Positions 6,317-41,552 of a stretch of DNA of 55,270 bases are shown here, one piece after another. The DNA is taken from IMG/VR virus record IMGVR_UViG_3300032156_000013, positions 1 through 55,270 of that record. The stretch is one strand, 5' to 3'. A model generated the notes under the pieces. That model made no database searches. It had not been told where the DNA came from and was given only the letters and a program-made list of their open reading frames with translations. The number at the start of each line of letters is the position of its first letter. Position 1 is the stretch's first letter. Made by a program: the position numbers and the translations under genes. The stretch is from a virus (Duplodnaviria > Caudoviricetes).

Positions 6317-6619
6317 TTATTTGAATTCACTTAATTTATGCTCGTATCCGAAATATTTATCTCTTTCTATCTTCAGCCCCATAGGACCATGCGCACTTTC
6401 TAATTCGCTTAATGTAAAATAGCCAATTTCGTGCTCAAACCCGTGAACCATTCCAAAGAACAACCAATCTCCATTTTTTTGCTTTTCGCCTTCGTAAGCA
6501 AACCATGTCCAGTTGGACCAAGGCGTAAAGAACTTCACGATTATTTTAGGATCTTCAACTTTCTCTTGCGAGTACAACTTTGGTAACTTTTCTTCGATTT
6601 CTTTAGTTAAAAGTTTCAT
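6317..6619 (-). CDS. DUF2958 domain protein
   Basis: LPKLYSQE...VKFFTPWSNWTWF..E...FFG.V.G.E.E.GYF.LSEL...IERD. Confidence 0.88.
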   Translation of the reverse strand: MKLLTKEIEEKLPKLYSQEKVEDPKIIVKFFTPWSNWTWFAYEGEKQKNGDWLFFGMVHGFEHEIGYFTLSELESAHGPMGLKIERDKYFGYEHKLSEFK

Positions 6620-6656
6620 TTTTCCGATGACCTCCTTATTATTTTATTATATAATT

Positions 6657-6684
6657 ATTTTACCATACTGGCCTACTGTGTCAA
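6657..6684 (-). promoter_or_regulatory. sigma70-type early promoter
   Basis: TTGACA-16 nt-TAAAAT with extended TG, directly upstream of the DUF2958 gene. Confidence 0.65.
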
Positions 6685-6752
6685 ATTTATCGAAAATTAT
6701 TCCTTCTATACTTTCTTACGAGTGATTTCTTTCTACCATGCACTAGATAACT

Positions 6753-6812
6753 TATACATTAAAAGGGGAAAGTCGTTTATGATTGTATGTAAAGTGGTGT
6801 AGCGGTTTGACT
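6753..6812. repeat. Dispersed 60-bp intergenic repeat, copy 1
   Basis: Ungapped match to 11359..11418 (46/60 by hand count), with identical 21-bp core GTTTATGATTGTATGTAAAGT at 6775-6795. Confidence 0.85.
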
Positions 6813-6866
6813 ACTATTGCCTACTTAAATATTTTTCTTACCTTCCCCTTTTCAGAGCTTGTCAAG

Positions 6867-7289
6867 TTAGTCTATGACAGTTACGGCTTTGCATTCCAAC
6901 CCCTGACTTTCAAGATAATTTGCTACTTTATTTACTGCTTCTTCGTGAACAGACATCTCTTGCCTGTTCGTTAAGCTTAATGACATCACATATCCTTTAT
7001 CGCTTTTCCAAATTGACATATCATCAATGTTTATATTATTATTCCTATTATCTTGAGTCCCTAACTTTTTGAATGCTCCAGTAATCTTTCCATTGCTAGG
7101 AATTTTAACCCATCCTATCCCGCAAACATCCAACATTCTACCTACTTCCTTCCCTGTCGCTTCATTAATTACCTTCCATCTATCCCCCTGCCCTAATAAT
7201 TTTTGATATTGCTTTTCCCCTGCTTCCCGGCCTAATTTCTGAGCTACTTTGACTAATCCAATTATTTTTCCTGCTTCCTTGATATCCAT
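6867..7289 (-). CDS. Hypothetical protein
   Basis: 140 aa with GGAGGTG SD; CGIGWV motif. Confidence 0.75.
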   Translation of the reverse strand: MDIKEAGKIIGLVKVAQKLGREAGEKQYQKLLGQGDRWKVINEATGKEVGRMLDVCGIGWVKIPSNGKITGAFKKLGTQDNRNNNINIDDMSIWKSDKGYVMSLSLTNRQEMSVHEEAVNKVANYLESQGLECKAVTVID

Positions 7290-7539
7290 TTAATTTTATT
7301 TCACCTCCTTTTTTCTTTTTTCTTTTTTTAAAATAATTTTTTTTATTTTGATCTAATCTTTTTAAGCGGTTATTTTGATAATATTGTTTATCATATTTCT
7401 TCTGATCTTTGCATAATCCTCTCCCATGCCCGGAAGCATGCTCACTTCCGCTATCATAAAGTTTCATATTCTCAATTCTATTATCATTTCCATCTCCATT
7501 GATATGGTGAACTACTTCATTCGACCTTATCGTTTGCAC
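7180..7539 (-). CDS. HNH endonuclease domain protein, possibly a 5'-truncated remnant
   Basis: EVVHHINGDGNDNRIENM...H...H. The domain starts almost at the GTG, there is no clear SD, and the 3' end runs 110 nt into the next gene. Confidence 0.6.
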   Translation of the reverse strand: MQTIRSNEVVHHINGDGNDNRIENMKLYDSGSEHASGHGRGLCKDQKKYDKQYYQNNRLKRLDQNKKNYFKKRKKKKGGEIKLNGYQGSRKNNWISQSSSEIRPGSRGKAISKIIRAGG

Positions 7540-7654
7540 ATTGACCTAAGACATAAACATCGCTGGTAAATAATTCATAATATCTTTCTAAGGGACATAC
7601 TTTAATAGCCTTACAGTGTCCCCATCTTGGACATAACATTTTTTCTTTTCCCAT
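7517..7654 (-). CDS. Small Cys-rich hypothetical protein (45 aa)
   Basis: MGKEKMLCPRWGHCKAIKVCPLE...CANDKVE; GGAGGAGG SD. Confidence 0.6.
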   Translation of the reverse strand: MGKEKMLCPRWGHCKAIKVCPLERYYELFTSDVYVLGQCANDKVE

Positions 7655-7669
7655 TTTCAAATCCTCCTC

Positions 7670-8131
7670 CTATTTAAAAATCTTTCCCATGATCTTACCT
7701 AAAGACTTCCCTCTCTTTACTGCTTCTTCAGATTCTTTTTTACCTGGTAAATGACTTTCAGCTTCTTTTTTAGATACCGCCTTTCTTACTAACTTTGGAT
7801 CGAAATCACTTATCTTTGCCAATCTGTACTTATTGAAATTATTTAAAAGCATTCCTCTTCTTTTACGATTCAATTCCGTAATCTGCTTTTCTATTACTAA
7901 TAACTCCTGATTGTCTTTTTCATCAATTACCCTTACATTTGACAAAGGTCCGTTGTAATTGCTCCATATTCTTTCTTTATGTTCTCTTACGTGTGGTCCA
8001 TAAGGCGGTGCGCTAGAGCAACCGATATACTCATATCCGGCTGGCTCTATTGCGTTAATAAAACTTGGATCTATTAACATTGGCCACAGTTGTTTTATAT
8101 GATGTGGAGCAGAGTTTGCTATAAATCTCAT
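7670..8131 (-). CDS. Hypothetical protein
   Basis: 153 aa; TGATG coupling to the upstream gene. Confidence 0.75.
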   Translation of the reverse strand: MRFIANSAPHHIKQLWPMLIDPSFINAIEPAGYEYIGCSSAPPYGPHVREHKERIWSNYNGPLSNVRVIDEKDNQELLVIEKQITELNRKRRGMLLNNFNKYRLAKISDFDPKLVRKAVSKKEAESHLPGKKESEEAVKRGKSLGKIMGKIFK

Positions 8132-8313
8132 CAGGCTGTCCTCCTTTCATAATTATTATTTTTTTCAGCTACTCTACCATCAAATTCCCTTTCTCCATAG
8201 AAGTTATCCAGATATATTTTATATCCCCTTTCATATCTCCTGTACCCTTTGCTATTTCCTCCACTTAGGCTCCTCCATTGGTCGTAATTTAATTTACTTC
8301 CTGGGTTTACCAT
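8131..8313 (-). CDS. Hypothetical protein
   Basis: 60 aa; strong AAGGAGG SD just downstream of the ribozyme. Confidence 0.7.
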   Translation of the reverse strand: MVNPGSKLNYDQWRSLSGGNSKGYRRYERGYKIYLDNFYGEREFDGRVAEKNNNYERRTA

Positions 8314-8340
8314 TTTGATACTCCTCCTTTTTTATTTAGA

Positions 8341-8397
8341 CCGTAGACCGGGGGAACCAGATCCTCCGGTTTCGTCCTTAGGGACTCTTCAGTACGG
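8341..8397 (-). ncRNA. Hammerhead ribozyme, type I
   Basis: Minus strand reads CCGUA-CUGAAGA-GUCC-CUAA-GGAC-GAAA-CCGG-AGGAUCUGGUUCCC-CCGG-UC^UACGG. The full core (CUGANGA, GAAA, GUC cleavage triplet) and all three stems are present; intergenic and in the sense orientation. Confidence 0.95.
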
Positions 8398-8407
8398 ATT
8401 TACTTTT

Positions 8408-8779
8408 TCACCATAAATTCACTTCCTCTCCTTTGAAAGCTTTTAAAAGTGCATCTGCTTTTTCAAATTTCGCTAATTTTCTTGCTGCATCCGACATTCT
8501 GTAATTACTAAAACAATTATCTACTTCATCTAATGCATACTGGAAATAATCTGATTTCCTATTACCGAAATAATGAACTTTCTGTCTTTCTAAATCTGCT
8601 ACTAACCTTTTCGCTCTTGCCACCATATCATTAAAATGCTCATCTAAATCTTTCTCTGCTCTATTTAACATCATCTTCGCCATCTGTACTTTTTCGTCAT
8701 TCGTAAATTCTCTATGTTTTCCTACTACCTCCGTTAGTGGTTTTACAAATCCTTCGAACTTCTTTTCTTTCTTTTCCAT
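8408..8779 (-). CDS. Hypothetical helical protein
   Basis: 123 aa; first gene after the consensus promoter at 8816-8844. Confidence 0.75.
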   Translation of the reverse strand: MEKKEKKFEGFVKPLTEVVGKHREFTNDEKVQMAKMMLNRAEKDLDEHFNDMVARAKRLVADLERQKVHYFGNRKSDYFQYALDEVDNCFSNYRMSDAARKLAKFEKADALLKAFKGEEVNLW

Positions 8780-8815
8780 TTTGATACTCCTTTTTATTTA
8801 TTATTTGATAATAAA

Positions 8816-8844
8816 ATTATATAATAATTTAATAATAATGTCAA
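8816..8844 (-). promoter_or_regulatory. Perfect-consensus sigma70-type early promoter
   Basis: TTGACA-17 nt-TATAAT with an AT-rich upstream region. Confidence 0.85.
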
Positions 8845-8914
8845 TAGTTCTATGAAAATAAATTGAAAGTATCGAATTTATTTTTTCGGTCTATCGGTAG
8901 ATACCGGGGAGGCC

Positions 8915-9157
8915 TCAGCCTCCCTCCCTGAGCTTCCTCGTCTTTTCACAAGCAAATGCATCTGCCAATCTTTTCATCACATCTTCACGCTCTTTAATAT
9001 TTAATATCCCAGCTTCATATAAACCGTTTACATATCCGTTGTAAAAATATTTCAAGTGTTCTATTGCTTCTGGTGTTTCGTATTTATAAGTAGAAAAGTC
9101 ATTTTTTAAATCGTTCCAGAACTTGTCTCTAATATTTCTTTTCTCTATAATTTTCAT
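8915..9157 (-). CDS. Hypothetical protein (GYVxGL family)
   Basis: 80 aa; YNGYVNGLYEAG motif shared with 10268..10780. Confidence 0.7.
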   Translation of the reverse strand: MKIIEKRNIRDKFWNDLKNDFSTYKYETPEAIEHLKYFYNGYVNGLYEAGILNIKEREDVMKRLADAFACEKTRKLREGG

Positions 9158-9336
9158 TTGCTATACATCTCCTTTAATTCTTTATAATTTTTCATCACGT
9201 CCAGACAATCTTCTTTGGTCAATTCTACGTCACAAACATTATCTGCTATATACATTACATTCTTAATATCAAACATGTTCGTCAATCCAGATTTTTGAAC
9301 TGTTAAATAAGCTTCAAATTTTTCTTTACTTACCAT
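9154..9336 (-). CDS. DUF5049-like protein
   Basis: VQKSGLTNMFDIKNV...NY signature. Confidence 0.7.
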   Translation of the reverse strand: MVSKEKFEAYLTVQKSGLTNMFDIKNVMYIADNVCDVELTKEDCLDVMKNYKELKEMYSK

Positions 9337-9556
9337 TATCTTTTTCCTCCTTTAAAACTAATTCTCTAGCTTCTCCATAAATCTTCACTGCTTCTTCTTT
9401 TTTCATGCCTGAATCTGAGAGCCCTTTAAGATAATAATTAATTGCATAATCATACTTTTCATAGTTCCCTTTTCTTTTGATCGCATCCCTATAATCTCTA
9501 ATTAACCCTTTGAATATATTGATATGTTCTTCTCGGGTCCTATATCTGGTCTTCGT
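9326..9556 (-). CDS. Hypothetical protein with an ACG start (non-canonical start or start-loss pseudogene)
   Basis: AAGGAGGT-6 nt-ACG opens a 76-codon frame (M)KTRYRTREEHINIFKGLIRDYR...YYLKGLSDSG... that fills the gap; missed by the track. Confidence 0.6.
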   Translation of the reverse strand, partial: TKTRYRTREEHINIFKGLIRDYRDAIKRKGNYEKYDYAINYYLKGLSDSGMKKEEAVKIYGEARELVLKEEKDNGK

Positions 9557-9574
9557 TTTGAAACCTCCTTTATT

Positions 9575-10072
9575 TTATTTTAAACTAACAGAATTAATAT
9601 ATTCTTGAGCTTCTTCTACGGTGTCGAAAGCTGCTAAGTATTCCCAGTGAAGACCCCTTAACTTATATACTTCGTGCTCTTTCATTCTTAATCTCTTTCT
9701 CTTCTCCTCGGGATATTCACATGTTCTTATTTTATAGTATTTGTTCATTTCTTCTATTTTTTTTATCGAAGTATTATAATAACAATTTTTACAACTACCC
9801 TTATATGAGCAATATCTATCTGTACGATTTTTGCAGGAATTTTTTATCTTTTTTTCTTCAAGCTCTTCTAATGTTTTCTTTTTATCCATTTGCAAATCCT
9901 CCTTTTTATTGCTGATATGACTTTTAATAATCCCGTCAGTCAATCCAGCTGCTTTATCAGCGATGGGTTGTATCCACTTCCAATCCTCAAAACTAATCGG
10001 TAACGCTCCAGGTACATCCTTTCCTAACTGTTTTACATATTCTAAATATTCATTATAACTATACTTTTTCAT
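9575..10072 (-). CDS. Hypothetical protein, possibly a fusion of two small genes
   Basis: 165 aa; an internal AAGGAGG precedes in-frame MDKKK; Cys cluster CKNR..C...CKNC. Confidence 0.6.
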   Translation of the reverse strand: MKKYSYNEYLEYVKQLGKDVPGALPISFEDWKWIQPIADKAAGLTDGIIKSHISNKKEDLQMDKKKTLEELEEKKIKNSCKNRTDRYCSYKGSCKNCYYNTSIKKIEEMNKYYKIRTCEYPEEKRKRLRMKEHEVYKLRGLHWEYLAAFDTVEEAQEYINSVSLK

Positions 10073-10271
10073 TTACTACTATCCCCCACTTAATATTATT
10101 TTCATCTAATTCTTCTACAGTCATTTCCTTTTCAGCATCTCCATCAATATCTAACGATTCCAAACATCCATGATGGCCAGTTTCCCAATTCTCAGTAAAA
10201 GCTAAATGTTCTATAACAGACCTTTGCTTCTTAGTCAATCTGTGTTTTGGAGTAATTATCTTTATTCTCAT
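10059..10271 (-). CDS. Hypothetical protein
   Basis: 70 aa, overlapping both neighbours. Confidence 0.65.
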   Translation of the reverse strand: MRIKIITPKHRLTKKQRSVIEHLAFTENWETGHHGCLESLDIDGDAEKEMTVEELDENNIKWGIVVNEKV

Positions 10272-10780
10272 CCTTTTATATCCCCCTCTTTTTCTAATTT
10301 GTTAAACAAATATTGAAGTTGGTTTTTTAATATTGGGCAATTTCCACTTGTCTTAGCGATTTCTAATATATATTCCAATCTTGTAACAATAGCTTCTTTT
10401 GTCATTTCTACTCTAACTTCAGTAAACTTCTCTAATTTTCCATACCTTTTTCCTAAATCACATGTATCAGCTTTGAACTGTCTTGTAAAAACCGTATCAC
10501 ATAAAGCCTCTTTTTTAACTCCTGCTTTTTTGCACATTTCTTCAAACTCTTCATTTTTAACTTCAGTATTGAAATTTTTCTTTCTTAATTCCTCATAATC
10601 TACCGCAGTCCATAAAGTATTGACCATTTCTATCCGTTTTTGCTCTGTAATTCTATTAGCCTTCCATAAACCATGGACATATCCTCTATAAATATCTTTT
10701 ACTTCCTTCAAATCCTTATTCGCTTTTAATTCTTTCTTAAACCATTCCCAAAACTCAATCGTATAAACATTATCTTTCAT
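10268..10780 (-). CDS. Hypothetical protein (GYVxGL family N-terminus)
   Basis: 170 aa; YRGYVHGLWKAN. Confidence 0.7.
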   Translation of the reverse strand: MKDNVYTIEFWEWFKKELKANKDLKEVKDIYRGYVHGLWKANRITEQKRIEMVNTLWTAVDYEELRKKNFNTEVKNEEFEEMCKKAGVKKEALCDTVFTRQFKADTCDLGKRYGKLEKFTEVRVEMTKEAIVTRLEYILEIAKTSGNCPILKNQLQYLFNKLEKEGDIKG

Positions 10781-11109
10781 TTCAGAACCTCCCTGAAACT
10801 TATATTTTCGATGGTCGTCCCATCTTTTACATATATATCTTCTTTATCTATAACGGTTATTATTTTAATGGTATTCTTTTTGAAGGTTGCTATAACCGCT
10901 ACTCTTTTTATTTTATCGATTATCGCTACATCCCTTCCATTATTTTGATAGGCCAGTAATCTTTTTTCTCCTAGTGATATCACTGTTCCAGATACCACGT
11001 ATTCGTCTATATTTCTTTGTCTCATTCTGATTATTGCGTGAGCTGTTGCCCTGATTGAGTAACACTGTTTTTCTATTTTGAGCTTTGCGATTTGCTTATC
11101 TTTTTTCAT
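10777..11109 (-). CDS. DUF4258-like / BECR-fold putative RNase
   Basis: TAHAIIRMRQRNI...V...IITVI pattern; first gene of the early region. Confidence 0.55.
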   Translation of the reverse strand: MKKDKQIAKLKIEKQCYSIRATAHAIIRMRQRNIDEYVVSGTVISLGEKRLLAYQNNGRDVAIIDKIKRVAVIATFKKNTIKIITVIDKEDIYVKDGTTIENISFREVLK

Positions 11110-11144
11110 TTTACCTTTCCTTTTGTTTATTTTTTGATAATTTA

Positions 11145-11174
11145 ATTATATAATAAAATAATAAAGTATGTCAA
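11145..11174 (-). promoter_or_regulatory. sigma70-type early promoter
   Basis: TTGACA-18 nt-TATAAT; flanks resemble those of the 8816-8844 and 6657-6684 promoters. Confidence 0.75.
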
Positions 11175-11358: not shown

Positions 11359-11418
11359 TATACATTGAGATCTAAAAGTTGTTTATGATTGTATGTAAAG
11401 TAGTATCAGCGTTTAACT
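11359..11418. repeat. Dispersed 60-bp intergenic repeat, copy 2
   Basis: Matches 6753..6812; identical core at 11381-11401. Confidence 0.85.
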
Positions 11419-11875: not shown

Positions 11876-13723
11876 CTATTCTTTCACTAATATTTTACTC
11901 TTGGTTTCGTGCTCAATCATATCACCTAAAATATTCCTTATTAATATTCTGCTCCTTGTCTCGTGCTCATCGATTTCGGTTGGACTGTCTATAATCGATA
12001 TTTCGCTTTCATTTTTTATGATAGCTAAAATCCCTCGTGAGAAAAAGTATTTTATCAAAACTCCATTTATACTAGTATTAATCTCTATTGTACAGGAAGC
12101 TTCTTCGATTTCTACTTCCTTCTCCGCGATAGCCCCTAGAATATCGGTTACCAGAATAAACTGGCTACTTGCTTCTTCAATCTTTCCTCTTGAGAGTAAC
12201 CCCGAAACCTTACTCACCAGTTCAAAAGTAGCCGAAGCTTCAATCGCTACACTCTCTAATATACCTTCTAGATTAGTATATATAAATACGGTTGTAGAAG
12301 CTTCTTCAATCTTCCCCTTGCTCAATTCCCCTTGAACATCGGTAGATAAATATATGATCTGGGAGGTCTCCTTAATTTTGCCCTTGCTCAGTAATCCAGA
12401 AATACCAGTATTTAATATAATGGTTTGGGAAGCTAATTCAACCTTCCCTTTGGCCAGAACCCCACTTACATCAGTAGCTAATTGATATACAGAGTAAGCA
12501 TTCCCGATGATTCCTTTCGCTAAACTACCAGTGATATTACTCGATAACAAATAAATAGAAGAAACCTCTTTAATTATTACGCTTCTCAATTCTCCAGATA
12601 TTAAAGTTGATATCCCTATTGTGGAAGTGGCTTCTTCAATCTTACCCTTATCTAAAATCCCAGCTATGTTAGTAAATAATGAATAACTGGAAGTTACTTC
12701 TTTAATTTTGCCTTTATTTAATGTCCCTGATATTGAATTCTGTAAATCATAAATCGATAAAGCACTCTCAATTTTTCCTTTTGATAATATTCCACTAATT
12801 AAAGAAGTCAAACTATAAATTGAGGAGGCTTCTCCTATCTCGCCCTTAGCCAATTCACCTGAGATTAAAGTCTGTAGCTCGAAAATGGAGATTGCTTCTT
12901 CTACTTTTCCTTTAGACAAGGCTCCATATATTAGAGTCTCTAAATCAAATATCGAAGAAGTGCTTTCTATTTTCCCCTTATTCAATATCCCAGTTACATT
13001 TGTTTGTAAGGAATAAATCGATGAGGCTAATAACTTATTATGCAATGCTCCTGATATTGAAGTTTCCAGATTGAAGACAGAAGAAGCACTTTCAATCTTA
13101 CCTTTCACCAATAATCCTGATACCAAAGTTTCTAAATTTAAAGTCGATGAAGCAATTTCGGTCTTGCCTTTTACTAATACTCCGCCAATGAGAGAAGCCA
13201 GAGAATAAATTGAGGAAGCCTCACTTATTTTTCCTTTACTCAATACTCCAGTCATTAAACTAGATAAGGAATAAATCGATACACCTTCTTCAATCTTTCC
13301 TTTGTTTAATACTCCAGATATATTAGTTTGCAGGGAATAAATAGAAGAAGTTTCTTTTGTTTCGCCTACGACTACATCGGGATTCCTTACAAATGGTTGT
13401 GCCTGAAAAGCGTAATCCATTGTGGTTAAATCAATACTAACTTTAGCAGGAACATCAACAAAGGGTTGAGCTTGAAAGGCGTAGTCCATTTTTTGTAAAT
13501 CTGTTTTACTCAACATAGATGTCCATGTGATTTCAAAAGATTCACTTGCTACAATCAGAGTTTCTAAATTAAAAATAGAAGAAGCAATTTCAATCTTGCC
13601 TTTAGACAATACACCAGCGATCCCCGTCTGTAAGGAATAAATAGAAGAAGCAAGTTTTGTCTCACCTACAACTACTTGGAAGACGTCATTCTGAAAGACA
13701 TCTAACTGAAAAGCCATATCCAT
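11876..13723 (-). CDS. 22-aa tandem-repeat fibre/scaffold protein
   Basis: About 22 copies of EASSIYSLxTxISGxLxKGKIE; duplicated MDYAFQAQPFV motif; N-terminal AFQLDVFQNDVFQ. Confidence 0.75.
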   Translation of the reverse strand: MDMAFQLDVFQNDVFQVVVGETKLASSIYSLQTGIAGVLSKGKIEIASSIFNLETLIVASESFEITWTSMLSKTDLQKMDYAFQAQPFVDVPAKVSIDLTTMDYAFQAQPFVRNPDVVVGETKETSSIYSLQTNISGVLNKGKIEEGVSIYSLSSLMTGVLSKGKISEASSIYSLASLIGGVLVKGKTEIASSTLNLETLVSGLLVKGKIESASSVFNLETSISGALHNKLLASSIYSLQTNVTGILNKGKIESTSSIFDLETLIYGALSKGKVEEAISIFELQTLISGELAKGEIGEASSIYSLTSLISGILSKGKIESALSIYDLQNSISGTLNKGKIKEVTSSYSLFTNIAGILDKGKIEEATSTIGISTLISGELRSVIIKEVSSIYLLSSNITGSLAKGIIGNAYSVYQLATDVSGVLAKGKVELASQTIILNTGISGLLSKGKIKETSQIIYLSTDVQGELSKGKIEEASTTVFIYTNLEGILESVAIEASATFELVSKVSGLLSRGKIEEASSQFILVTDILGAIAEKEVEIEEASCTIEINTSINGVLIKYFFSRGILAIIKNESEISIIDSPTEIDEHETRSRILIRNILGDMIEHETKSKILVKE

Positions 13724-40061: not shown

Positions 40062-41552
40062 TTATTTTATCACAACTAAACTTGCATCATCAAAAATACA
40101 TAACTCGTGACGTATATATATACCATCATACCCAGCGTTTTTCATCATGTATCTTTGAGTCACTTCAATCCCATACTTTTCAGTCCTAGTTATTTTCTTA
40201 ATTGCTTCCCAATCTTTAGATGTTATAGTTTTAAGAGTTCCCAATAACTGAGAATCGTACTTTAATTTTGCATCAGCTACTAGTTCTGCGTAAGTTAAAT
40301 TCTCATTAACTATTGTAGCATTACGTAGAAGAGAACTATCGGTTATTAGTTGATAGTACTCTTTTTCATTCGTAGCTGTAAGAACATTTGAAAGTTTAGT
40401 TTTTATTTTTAAAACTTGACCCTTTTTGCCAGTAATCGTACTATAAAATTCAGCTTCATTCTCAGCCAAAGTCGCATAGTGACCTTGACCTAAATAGCCT
40501 CCACATTTTGTATTATCCCCCAAGTTAGCTATCTTAAAACCTTCTTCTTTAATTTCGGTAGCTGCTCCTTTTGTAGTCCCATGGTAAAATACTTCTTTCT
40601 CATATACACTTCCTTTTGCCCATGCATTAGCTTCAGATTCTGTCATAGTTGGCTTCCATACTGGAGCTGGTTTCTCTCTCGCTTCGTACACTACCGTCCA
40701 AGCACATCGACATCTTGGATGCAATGGTAAGATACCATGGGCCTCCTCAATCGTGTATTCTTCTCCCTCTCTGGCCGCACATTCCTCACAACAATCGGCT
40801 GCACTTGAAATTGTAACCGTTGTAAAGACATCTTGTTGTTCTAAAGCTTGCAGATATCCTTCATTTACGGATCTAGATACTTCTGTCTTTGCTATTGAGT
40901 CGCATCTACCACGGTATAATTCGTTGTAATAACTCTGCATCTTGCTACCCAAAGCTTTATCACTAATACCATCGGCAATTAGACTGTCTCTATAAGTATA
41001 ATATGATTTGGTTTGCGTTAAGTTAAGTCCTAAAGGCAGTTCCCTTATCTGTCTACCTATTTCAACCCGACTCATCTTATCACGCATACTCTGTGCAATT
41101 ACTTCACGCAAGGCATCTTTAGTTTCATTCGTAAGTTCAGTTACACGTTCTAATGAATTCTTAGCTGCCCAGCTCAACGAAAGCGGATTGAATACATTAA
41201 AACTACCTTCTATTCTCGCCTGCTCATAAGCTTTACCCCCAGATTCAGCCATTACGCTTACATAAGCAGGTTCATAGATTGCAACACCTTCCTCTTCTAT
41301 CTTCTCCCAGTCTACATATTTAGTTACTATGCTTGAAGCACTTGCCTTTATTATTCTTTTTTTAATATCGGATACTATCTTATTAACCATGAAATCAAGA
41401 TACTTTTTAGCTACATCTTTATAGAATATATCATATCTTTTGTCCATTGTTCTGAACATCGCATTCCGATTCTTCCTGTTGAGATCTATTTTTTCAAAGA
41501 ACGTATTTAATTGTATTGAGATTTCTTTTGCCTTTTCGACAGTTACCATCAA
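40062..41552 (-). CDS. MuF / SPP1 gp7-like minor head protein with a C-terminal ADP-ribosyltransferase domain
   Basis: IAKTE.....N.G, CEEC, PLHPRCRC, then FYHGT...GF...G.LGQGHY......A..Y...GYDGI...ELCIFD (H-Y-E type ART). Confidence 0.85.
   Translation of the reverse strand: MMVTVEKAKEISIQLNTFFEKIDLNRKNRNAMFRTMDKRYDIFYKDVAKKYLDFMVNKIVSDIKKRIIKASASSIVTKYVDWEKIEEEGVAIYEPAYVSVMAESGGKAYEQARIEGSFNVFNPLSLSWAAKNSLERVTELTNETKDALREVIAQSMRDKMSRVEIGRQIRELPLGLNLTQTKSYYTYRDSLIADGISDKALGSKMQSYYNELYRGRCDSIAKTEVSRSVNEGYLQALEQQDVFTTVTISSAADCCEECAAREGEEYTIEEAHGILPLHPRCRCAWTVVYEAREKPAPVWKPTMTESEANAWAKGSVYEKEVFYHGTTKGAATEIKEEGFKIANLGDNTKCGGYLGQGHYATLAENEAEFYSTITGKKGQVLKIKTKLSNVLTATNEKEYYQLITDSSLLRNATIVNENLTYAELVADAKLKYDSQLLGTLKTITSKDWEAIKKITRTEKYGIEVTQRYMMKNAGYDGIYIRHELCIFDDASLVVIK

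Follow-up and report, generated by a model that had tools for sequence, protein, structure and literature searches.

The stretch of DNA analysed here (the window) is a whole IMG/VR virus record, IMGVR_UViG_3300032156_000013, which is 55,270 bases long and estimated by CheckV to be 80% complete. The element in question is a complete type I hammerhead ribozyme of 57 nucleotides (nt) on its minus strand (8397..8341), recognized from its sequence, its minimum free energy (MFE) fold, a descriptor search with shuffled controls and the score of a covariance model (R1). Pfam matches to a portal protein, a minor tail protein and a Mu F-like head protein identify the window as that of a tailed phage. 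Its G+C content is about 35%, and its long open reading frames (ORFs) lie nearly all on the minus strand, including all of those listed near the ribozyme. The locus begins with a sigma-70-type promoter on that strand (8844..8816), in which TTGACA and TATAAT are separated by 17 nt and 12/12 hexamer positions match, in agreement with the preliminary description of this DNA, which had called it perfect. This promoter lies upstream of gene 1 (8779..8408, 123 amino acids (aa)), the hammerhead and the downstream genes, namely gene 2 (8313..8131, 60 aa, basic) and gene 3 (8131..7670, 153 aa), which overlaps the gene 2 stop codon. All three minus-strand genes encode proteins of no known family, and gene 1 gave only a weak PHROG match, to an entry of unknown function, and no Pfam match. 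The ribozyme is in the sense orientation with respect to this operon, with the TGA stop of gene 1 (8410-8408) 10 nt upstream of it and the ATG of gene 2 27 nt past the 3' end of stem I. The Shine-Dalgarno sequence of gene 2, GGAGGAG (8327..8321, minus strand), lies 18 nt downstream of the predicted cut. No ORF of at least 40 aa was found over 8314-8407 on either strand.

The elements of the ribozyme, all on the minus strand, follow the order stem I 5' strand, core, stem II hairpin, GAAA, stem III hairpin, UC and stem I 3' strand. The 5' strand of stem I (CCGUA, 8397-8393) pairs with its 3' strand (UACGG, 8345-8341), and is followed by the core segment C3-A9 (CUGAAGA, 8392-8386), which fits the consensus C3 U4 G5 A6 N7 G8 A9. 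Stem II is made up of GUCC (8385-8382), the loop CUAA (8381-8378) and GGAC (8377-8374), with the G10.1-C11.1 pair present, and leads into the 3' part of the core, consisting of G12 A13 A14 (GAA, 8373-8371) and A15.1 (8370). Stem III is formed by CCGG (8369-8366) and CCGG (8351-8348) together with the A15.1-U16.1 pair, and continues past an A8365/C8352 mismatch into a GGA/UCC helix capped by the 6-nt loop UCUGGU. U16.1 (8347) and C17 (8346) belong to the GUC site, C17 lying 5' of the predicted scissile bond, which hammerhead numbering places between C17 (8346) and U1.1 (8345); the 3' strand of stem I would thus form the 5'-OH end of the downstream RNA. Pairing is complete in stem I (5/5) and stem II (4/4), while stem III has five pairs beside the core, the one A/C mismatch and three further pairs. 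Because stem I is the open helix, with stems II and III closed by loops, the ribozyme is of type I.

The core filter applied to natural hammerheads, as given in the available part of Perreault et al. 2011 (PMC3088659), specifies C3 U4 G5 A6 N7 G8 A9 G12 A13 A14 A15.1 U16.1 H17 and no mispair at 10.1-11.1, 1.1-2.1 or 15.1-16.1. The window ribozyme agrees with that core at every position (CUGAAGA 8392-8386, GAAA 8373-8370, U8347 and C8346), and its three core-adjacent pairs (G8385-C8374, U8345-A8393 and A8370-U8347) are all intact. The MFE fold of 8405..8335 (71 nt) is exactly the hammerhead three-way junction, and in all contexts folded the pairing probability is 0.57-0.99 for stem II and 0.88-0.96 for stem III. 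The preliminary description had proposed this anatomy, a type I element in sense between cistrons 1 and 2, a cut between 8346 and 8345 and a 32-nt leader before the ATG at 8313. The sequence, the fold and the ORF list bear out the anatomy and placement, the leader length is correct, and the predicted cut agrees with hammerhead numbering.

The hammerhead in the window is not a chance motif. A generic type I descriptor finds one site in the window, with both strands scanned; under loose limits any match occurs in 3/300 first-order Markov shuffles, and at the observed helix lengths in 1/1500. When IMG/VR was scanned with a pattern covering the core and stem II, 65 loci came up, in which the descriptor finds 66 distinct type I hammerheads. 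The covariance model R1 was built from 11 of these hammerheads of other viral contigs, 49 nt each in a gapless alignment, with the window left out. It matches the window at 8398..8340 on the minus strand with 40.6 bits (E 1.9e-10, filters off), a score that is somewhat inflated by stem II identity, since the pattern used to gather the loci derived from the core and stem II of the window itself. Among the 17 matches listed to E 10, the runner-up reaches 11.2 bits (E 0.8). Type II and type III descriptors match nothing in the window, and Rfam to E 1 lists only one hammerhead match there.

In the 65 viral loci R1 gives 97 matches, with family scores of 23-75 bits. The alignment of 71 distinct rows was fitted to the model, which favours structure, and in it 98.1% of cells are paired and both-side (compensatory) changes are seen in 12/15 pairs; the covariation score is 0.698 as against 0.134 for shuffled alignments (0/500 shuffles reach it), and the contrast with controls in which the partner was slid (0.023-0.072) is still large. 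The gene contexts of the family were examined for 83 distinct R1 matches (L002-L066), de-duplicated on 60-nt flanks and scored by a crude ORF rule that uses no gene finder; these contexts are not phylogenetically independent. The stop codon of an upstream sense ORF (≥50 aa) falls in the stretch from 10 nt inside the ribozyme to 3 nt ahead of it in 60/83 contexts, and a Shine-Dalgarno sequence with the start of an ORF of ≥40 aa follows within 40 nt downstream in 42/83, with 36 having both features. Sense ORF cover exceeds antisense cover in 67 contexts, and the reverse holds in 16. The gene context in the window fits this family pattern. The upstream stop is often a TAA belonging to stem I or the TGA within the CUGA core, and the 5' parts of the ribozymes tend to hold stops in all three frames. 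Some contigs carry several copies in one direction between successive small genes, for example seven in 10.8 kb in L022 and ten in 9.7 kb in L066 by the type I descriptor; others are L028, L030, L054 and L056.

Relatives of the locus itself came from metagenomes. A search of sequencing runs listed five DNA runs, all sediment metagenomes and one of them the probable source of the window, and no run recorded as RNA, a result that bears neither way on expression. Contigs of four of the runs (X2-X5) were aligned to 6500-10500. In X3 and X5, which come from two studies, contigs align to 7721-8397 with 48 differing letters and 7 gaps over 677 nt (about 92% identity), through the whole ribozyme. The boundary of the aligned block is exactly 8397, the base with which stem I begins and the 5' edge of the ribozyme; 372 unrelated letters stand in place of 8398-8738, which holds most of gene 1, and the alignment resumes over 8739-8834, with the promoter and the start of gene 1. 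On this alignment, a near relative retains the ribozyme while the neighbouring gene is exchanged. Three of the seven gaps fall in the ribozyme, at 8354, 8358 and 8361-8363, all in the distal helix or loop of stem III. The single-base deletions of X5 at 8363 and 8354 remove the two partners of one predicted pair, and the X3 alignment puts one of them at 8361; since the contigs are on opposite strands, this difference may be a single variant with its gaps placed differently.

A metagenome scan with gene 3 found one locus, L067, on a contig of 1,908 nt, with homologues of gene 2 (511-690, 60% identity) and gene 3 (690-1175, 64%). Its upstream ORF is a homologue of the window gene at 9336..9154 (66%) fused to the first ~23 residues of gene 1, and its homology with the window at this spacer begins only at the Shine-Dalgarno sequence behind the ribozyme. 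Directly before the gene 2 homologue, which the type I hammerhead precedes in the window, L067 carries a type II hammerhead (432-490) with stems of 7, 3 and 7 pairs and stem II as the open helix. Its parts are the 3' strand of stem II (432-434), GAA (435-437), stem III with a GAAA loop (438-457), C17 (458), stem I (459-480), the core segment UUGAAAA (481-487), which has U3/A8, and the 5' strand of stem II (488-490). Loop I (467-472) forms a 6-bp pseudoknot with a tail (492-497) just before the Shine-Dalgarno sequence, and the upstream stop codon, UAG (430-432), overlaps stem II. The element was missed by R1 and by Rfam (E up to 10); the type II descriptor, allowing either core, finds the site, and gives any match in 1/20000 shuffles of the contig. 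The U3-A8 combination is described by Perreault et al. 2011 (PMC3088659) as a covariation of the C3-G8 pair in natural hammerheads and is cited there as active in vitro. A further pattern scan of at least 120 loci, filtered by descriptor, gave at least 10 type II hammerheads in at least eight loci, at least seven of them with U3/A8, with covarying stems and pseudoknots; one locus (L080) has four type II hammerheads in tandem within 1.2 kb, three with C3/G8 and one with U3/A8. As read from sequence, two related phages thus have differently wired hammerheads, type I and type II, in the same spacer before the same gene.

Other searches for relatives were less productive. A blastn search with 7600-9400 gave no match in the phage collection, and genes 1, 2 and 3 have no relatives in the IMG/VR viral contigs or in the genome collection, where the exact 24-nt pattern of core and stem II is likewise unmatched. 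Relatives of the portal protein (45-46% identity, three loci) have no R1 match, which is uninformative as their records are fragments with CheckV completeness of 8-53%.

These observations make it probable that this type I hammerhead is active and cuts constitutively, inside an early polycistronic mRNA of the phage. The term 'early' depends on the low-coordinate third of the window, in which consensus promoters and small genes of unassigned function, without known families, suggest an early region. Host RNA polymerase would start at the promoter at 8844..8816 and transcribe gene 1 and then the 57-nt ribozyme, stems II and III of which would fold as local hairpins, with stem I closing once 8345-8341 emerges. 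The 2'-OH of C8346 would then attack the next phosphate. The upstream product would be the gene 1 mRNA, with a 2',3'-cyclic phosphate end and nearly the whole folded ribozyme at its 3' end, and the downstream product would have a 5'-OH at U8345, a leader of 32 nt, the strong Shine-Dalgarno sequence, and genes 2, 3 and beyond. Religation is unlikely because the 5-bp stem I should come apart after the cut. The net effect would be to uncouple the fate of cistron 1 (its stability and translation) from that of the later cistrons; this rests on inference as to in-vivo cleavage, its speed and the sign of any effect on mRNA stability. A further case of self-cleavage in a bacterial mRNA leader is the glmS ribozyme, which leaves a 5'-OH on the coding fragment, the end that decides its fate: in Bacillus this product is degraded by RNase J1, and the metabolite-dependent cleavage lowers expression. 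No ligand domain is seen in the window ribozyme, unlike glmS. As a precedent, glmS would point to degradation of the downstream RNA, whereas a ribosome sitting close to its 5' end might shield it.

That self-cleavage would separate cistron 1 from the downstream genes, as the preliminary description suggested, is the best interpretation available. Perreault et al. 2011 proposed the same role for clustered prophage hammerheads, and it gains strength here from the retention of the ribozyme in the near relative and from the permuted type II hammerhead of L067. According to that paper (PMC3088659), clustered prophage hammerheads flank genes, three arrangements having cleaved in vitro and one in E. 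coli cells, and their proposed role is the processing of long phage transcripts into mRNAs of single-gene or operon length. Such clustered phage and prophage hammerheads resemble the window ribozyme in having a canonical core and in lying in sense between operon genes of varying, mostly unknown identity, and types I, II and III occur in such contexts; the window differs in having a single copy, in coming from an uncultured phage of a sediment metagenome and in that no pseudoknot was found. The closest published parallel found is HHphage of haloviruses HF1/HF2, a hammerhead shortly before an early gene, which as described there lies 13 nt before the gene start, with a mapped transcript 5' end ≤3 nt from the cut (PMC3088659). 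HHphage has a core variant, a high Mg2+ need and an archaeal-virus host, in contrast to the standard core of the window ribozyme and the bacterial TTGACA/TATAAT and GGAGG signals around it.

Several points weigh against an active, constitutive ribozyme, to which belong the inflation of the R1 score and the crude ORF rule and lack of phylogenetic independence of the contexts, already mentioned. The energy of the MFE fold (-20.8 kcal/mol) is ordinary (z -1.17), and 25/200 shuffles fold equally well. Stem I, at 5 bp, is shorter than the 6 bp usual in the family, and its pairing probability falls from 0.93 in isolation to 0.0-0.6 with long flanks; this lowers confidence in the speed of cleavage rather than in the identity of the element, since secondary-structure folding ignores co-transcriptional order and tertiary structure. 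A possible distal extension of stem I (AUUUA at about 8417-8413 with UAAAU at 8338-8334), spotted only by eye, would overlap the end of gene 1, is supported by no test and was rejected. According to Perreault et al. 2011 (PMC3088659), a hammerhead requires tertiary contacts of stem I with loop II if it is to cleave fast at physiological Mg2+; many examples, by the same account, show no such contact. In the window, no complement of ≥3 nt to loop II (CUAA) was found in the 14-nt flanks, non-Watson-Crick contacts not being judgeable from sequence, and several family members have pseudoknots of 4-6 bp. Finally, conservation of the core in the X3/X5 relative is implied, by the alignment running through it, rather than read base by base.

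The Rfam models also stand on this side. At Rfam gathering thresholds there are no matches in the window, and the threshold of RF00163 Hammerhead_1 (34 bits) is not reached. The best sub-threshold match is to RF03152 RAGATH-1-hammerhead, with 32.9 bits where 56.3 are needed, over model positions 1-77 (E 0.00053 on 251 nt and 0.12 on the whole window), and Rfam HH9 gives 18 bits where 52 are needed. Thus the covariance-model search that had been proposed as a check came out in favour of the element with R1 and below threshold with the Rfam models. The same thresholds recover only 2/38 R1 matches in ten loci (L003, L007, L022, L028, L030, L039, L054, L055, L056 and L066), so the Rfam test is insensitive for phage type I hammerheads, the miss is no mark against the element, and routine annotation under-reports such ribozymes. 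The catalytic core and the type I element order are shared between the window ribozyme and both RF00163 and RF03152; among the differences, the window ribozyme has a normal 4-bp stem II, and what cmscan aligned to the upstream hairpin of RAGATH-1 is a weak stem of 4 bp that overlaps the gene 1 stop codon.

A broader proposition is that phage hammerheads in general serve as 'cistron-separator cassettes', self-contained and interchangeable, each fitting exactly into the gap from a stop codon to the Shine-Dalgarno sequence that follows, with selection acting on the cut and not on the RNA topology. It would fit the type I ribozyme of the window and the type II ribozyme of L067 before the same gene, the homology breakpoints at the cassette edges and the stop codons in or against the ribozyme in 60/83 contexts, and is put forward tentatively, as a doubtful generalization.

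The same stop codons bear on whether cleavage is constitutive, as supposed above, or gated, occurring only when the upstream cistron is untranslated, or under particular ionic or protein conditions, and so reporting the translation of gene 1. Where the stop lies inside or abuts the 5' strand of the ribozyme, as in those 60 contexts, a terminating ribosome must melt stem I; this would set termination in competition with folding, and the cut would serve as a readout of upstream translation. The stop codon in the window precedes stem I by 10 nt, and the usual footprint of a ribosome puts stem I just outside it. The weakness of stem I in long-context folds and the failure to find a tertiary contact, which leaves room for a cofactor, would suit gated cleavage, and regulated cleavage of phage hammerheads was raised by Perreault et al. 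2011 (PMC3088659). Against this, the ribozyme has no aptamer-like extra domain, and the indels of its near relative fall in the large stem III loop. Gated cleavage is accordingly judged unlikely at this locus.

Constitutive activity is also at issue if the hammerhead is decaying or very slow, a cassette relic whose consensus is kept by recent descent and which has little effect on expression. The short stem I, the lack of any pseudoknot or loop contact found and its being the sole hammerhead in the window could all be taken in this sense. However, all core positions are intact, the element is kept in a relative of about 92% identity in which the neighbouring gene was exchanged, and the presence of an independent type II hammerhead in the same spacer of L067 argues for selection on cleavage at that position; a relic is therefore thought quite improbable.

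Still less credence is given to a main selected role at the level of DNA, in which the conserved ribozyme cassette would mark a module boundary where related phages swap neighbouring genes by recombination. The X3/X5 homology does stop exactly at 8397 and resume at 8739, that of L067 sets in only with the Shine-Dalgarno sequence that follows the ribozyme, and the window holds repeats of the promoter regions and of the translation-start regions as well (D2 and D4). Breakpoints at gene borders are, however, expected in mosaic phages regardless of a ribozyme, the window genome has one hammerhead copy only, and recombination alone would leave the keeping of a catalytic core unexplained. Equally hard to credit is a structured spacer that never cleaves and serves only as a 3' stabilizer of the gene 1 mRNA or as a pause site, for although stems II and III stay stable whatever the folding context, a plain hairpin would not require 13 invariant core positions in the right order, no U-run follows stem III and no minus-strand terminator is predicted between the promoters at 8816 and 6684 (an intrinsic terminator was rejected as a candidate on these grounds), and the counterpart in L067 has another architecture with the same catalytic core.

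Further features of the region complete the description. Two more sigma-70-type promoters lie on the minus strand, at 11174..11145 (12/12) and at 6684..6657 (11/12, with TG). Direct repeats of 76-77% identity include the promoter regions 8770-8835 and 11099-11164 and a 60-nt repeat upstream of two promoters (6753-6812 and 11359-11418), and the translation-start regions of genes 1 and 2 form a direct repeat, D4 (8291-8336 and 8757-8802, 76%); the region around the ribozyme thus looks as if it were built from repeated regulatory cassettes. Among ten small genes scanned near the ribozyme, the sole confident family assignment is a DUF2958 protein of 100 aa (6317-6619, minus strand, E 4.2e-15). A 615-aa protein (11876-13723, minus strand) has a Pfam PPR_2 match (E 3.1e-10, 40.5 bits with a cutoff of 30) in addition to PPR. 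Pentatricopeptide-type helical repeats are best known in organellar RNA-binding proteins and are unusual in phage. A 496-aa protein (40062-41552, minus strand) shows weak matches to Mu F-like head morphogenesis and polyvalent-protein ADP-ribosyltransferase families, both under the Pfam cutoffs. No tRNA genes were found in the window.

The role of the hundreds of phage and prophage hammerheads is described as unproven by Perreault et al. 2011 (PMC3088659), and their purpose as undefined in a 2019 review (PMC6765202), as far as the available parts of these sources go. Intergenic hammerheads in phages are already known, and what the present locus adds, of modest interest, is the replacement of type I by type II at one syntenic spacer and the breakpoint at the ribozyme edge. 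A type I and a type II hammerhead in one spacer of two related phages were not found stated in the available part of PMC3088659, the Dataset S1 and Figures S4-S5 of which may already contain this subfamily and its tertiary contacts. The locus amounts to a small natural experiment, with type I set against type II before the same gene, and with the upstream gene swapped and the ribozyme kept in a third lineage. As far as sequence comparison can tell, this argues that the cut just upstream of the ribosome-binding site may be what is selected, and the locus supplies three compact constructs bearing on how a 5'-OH leader and a ribozyme-capped 3' end affect the neighbouring cistrons.

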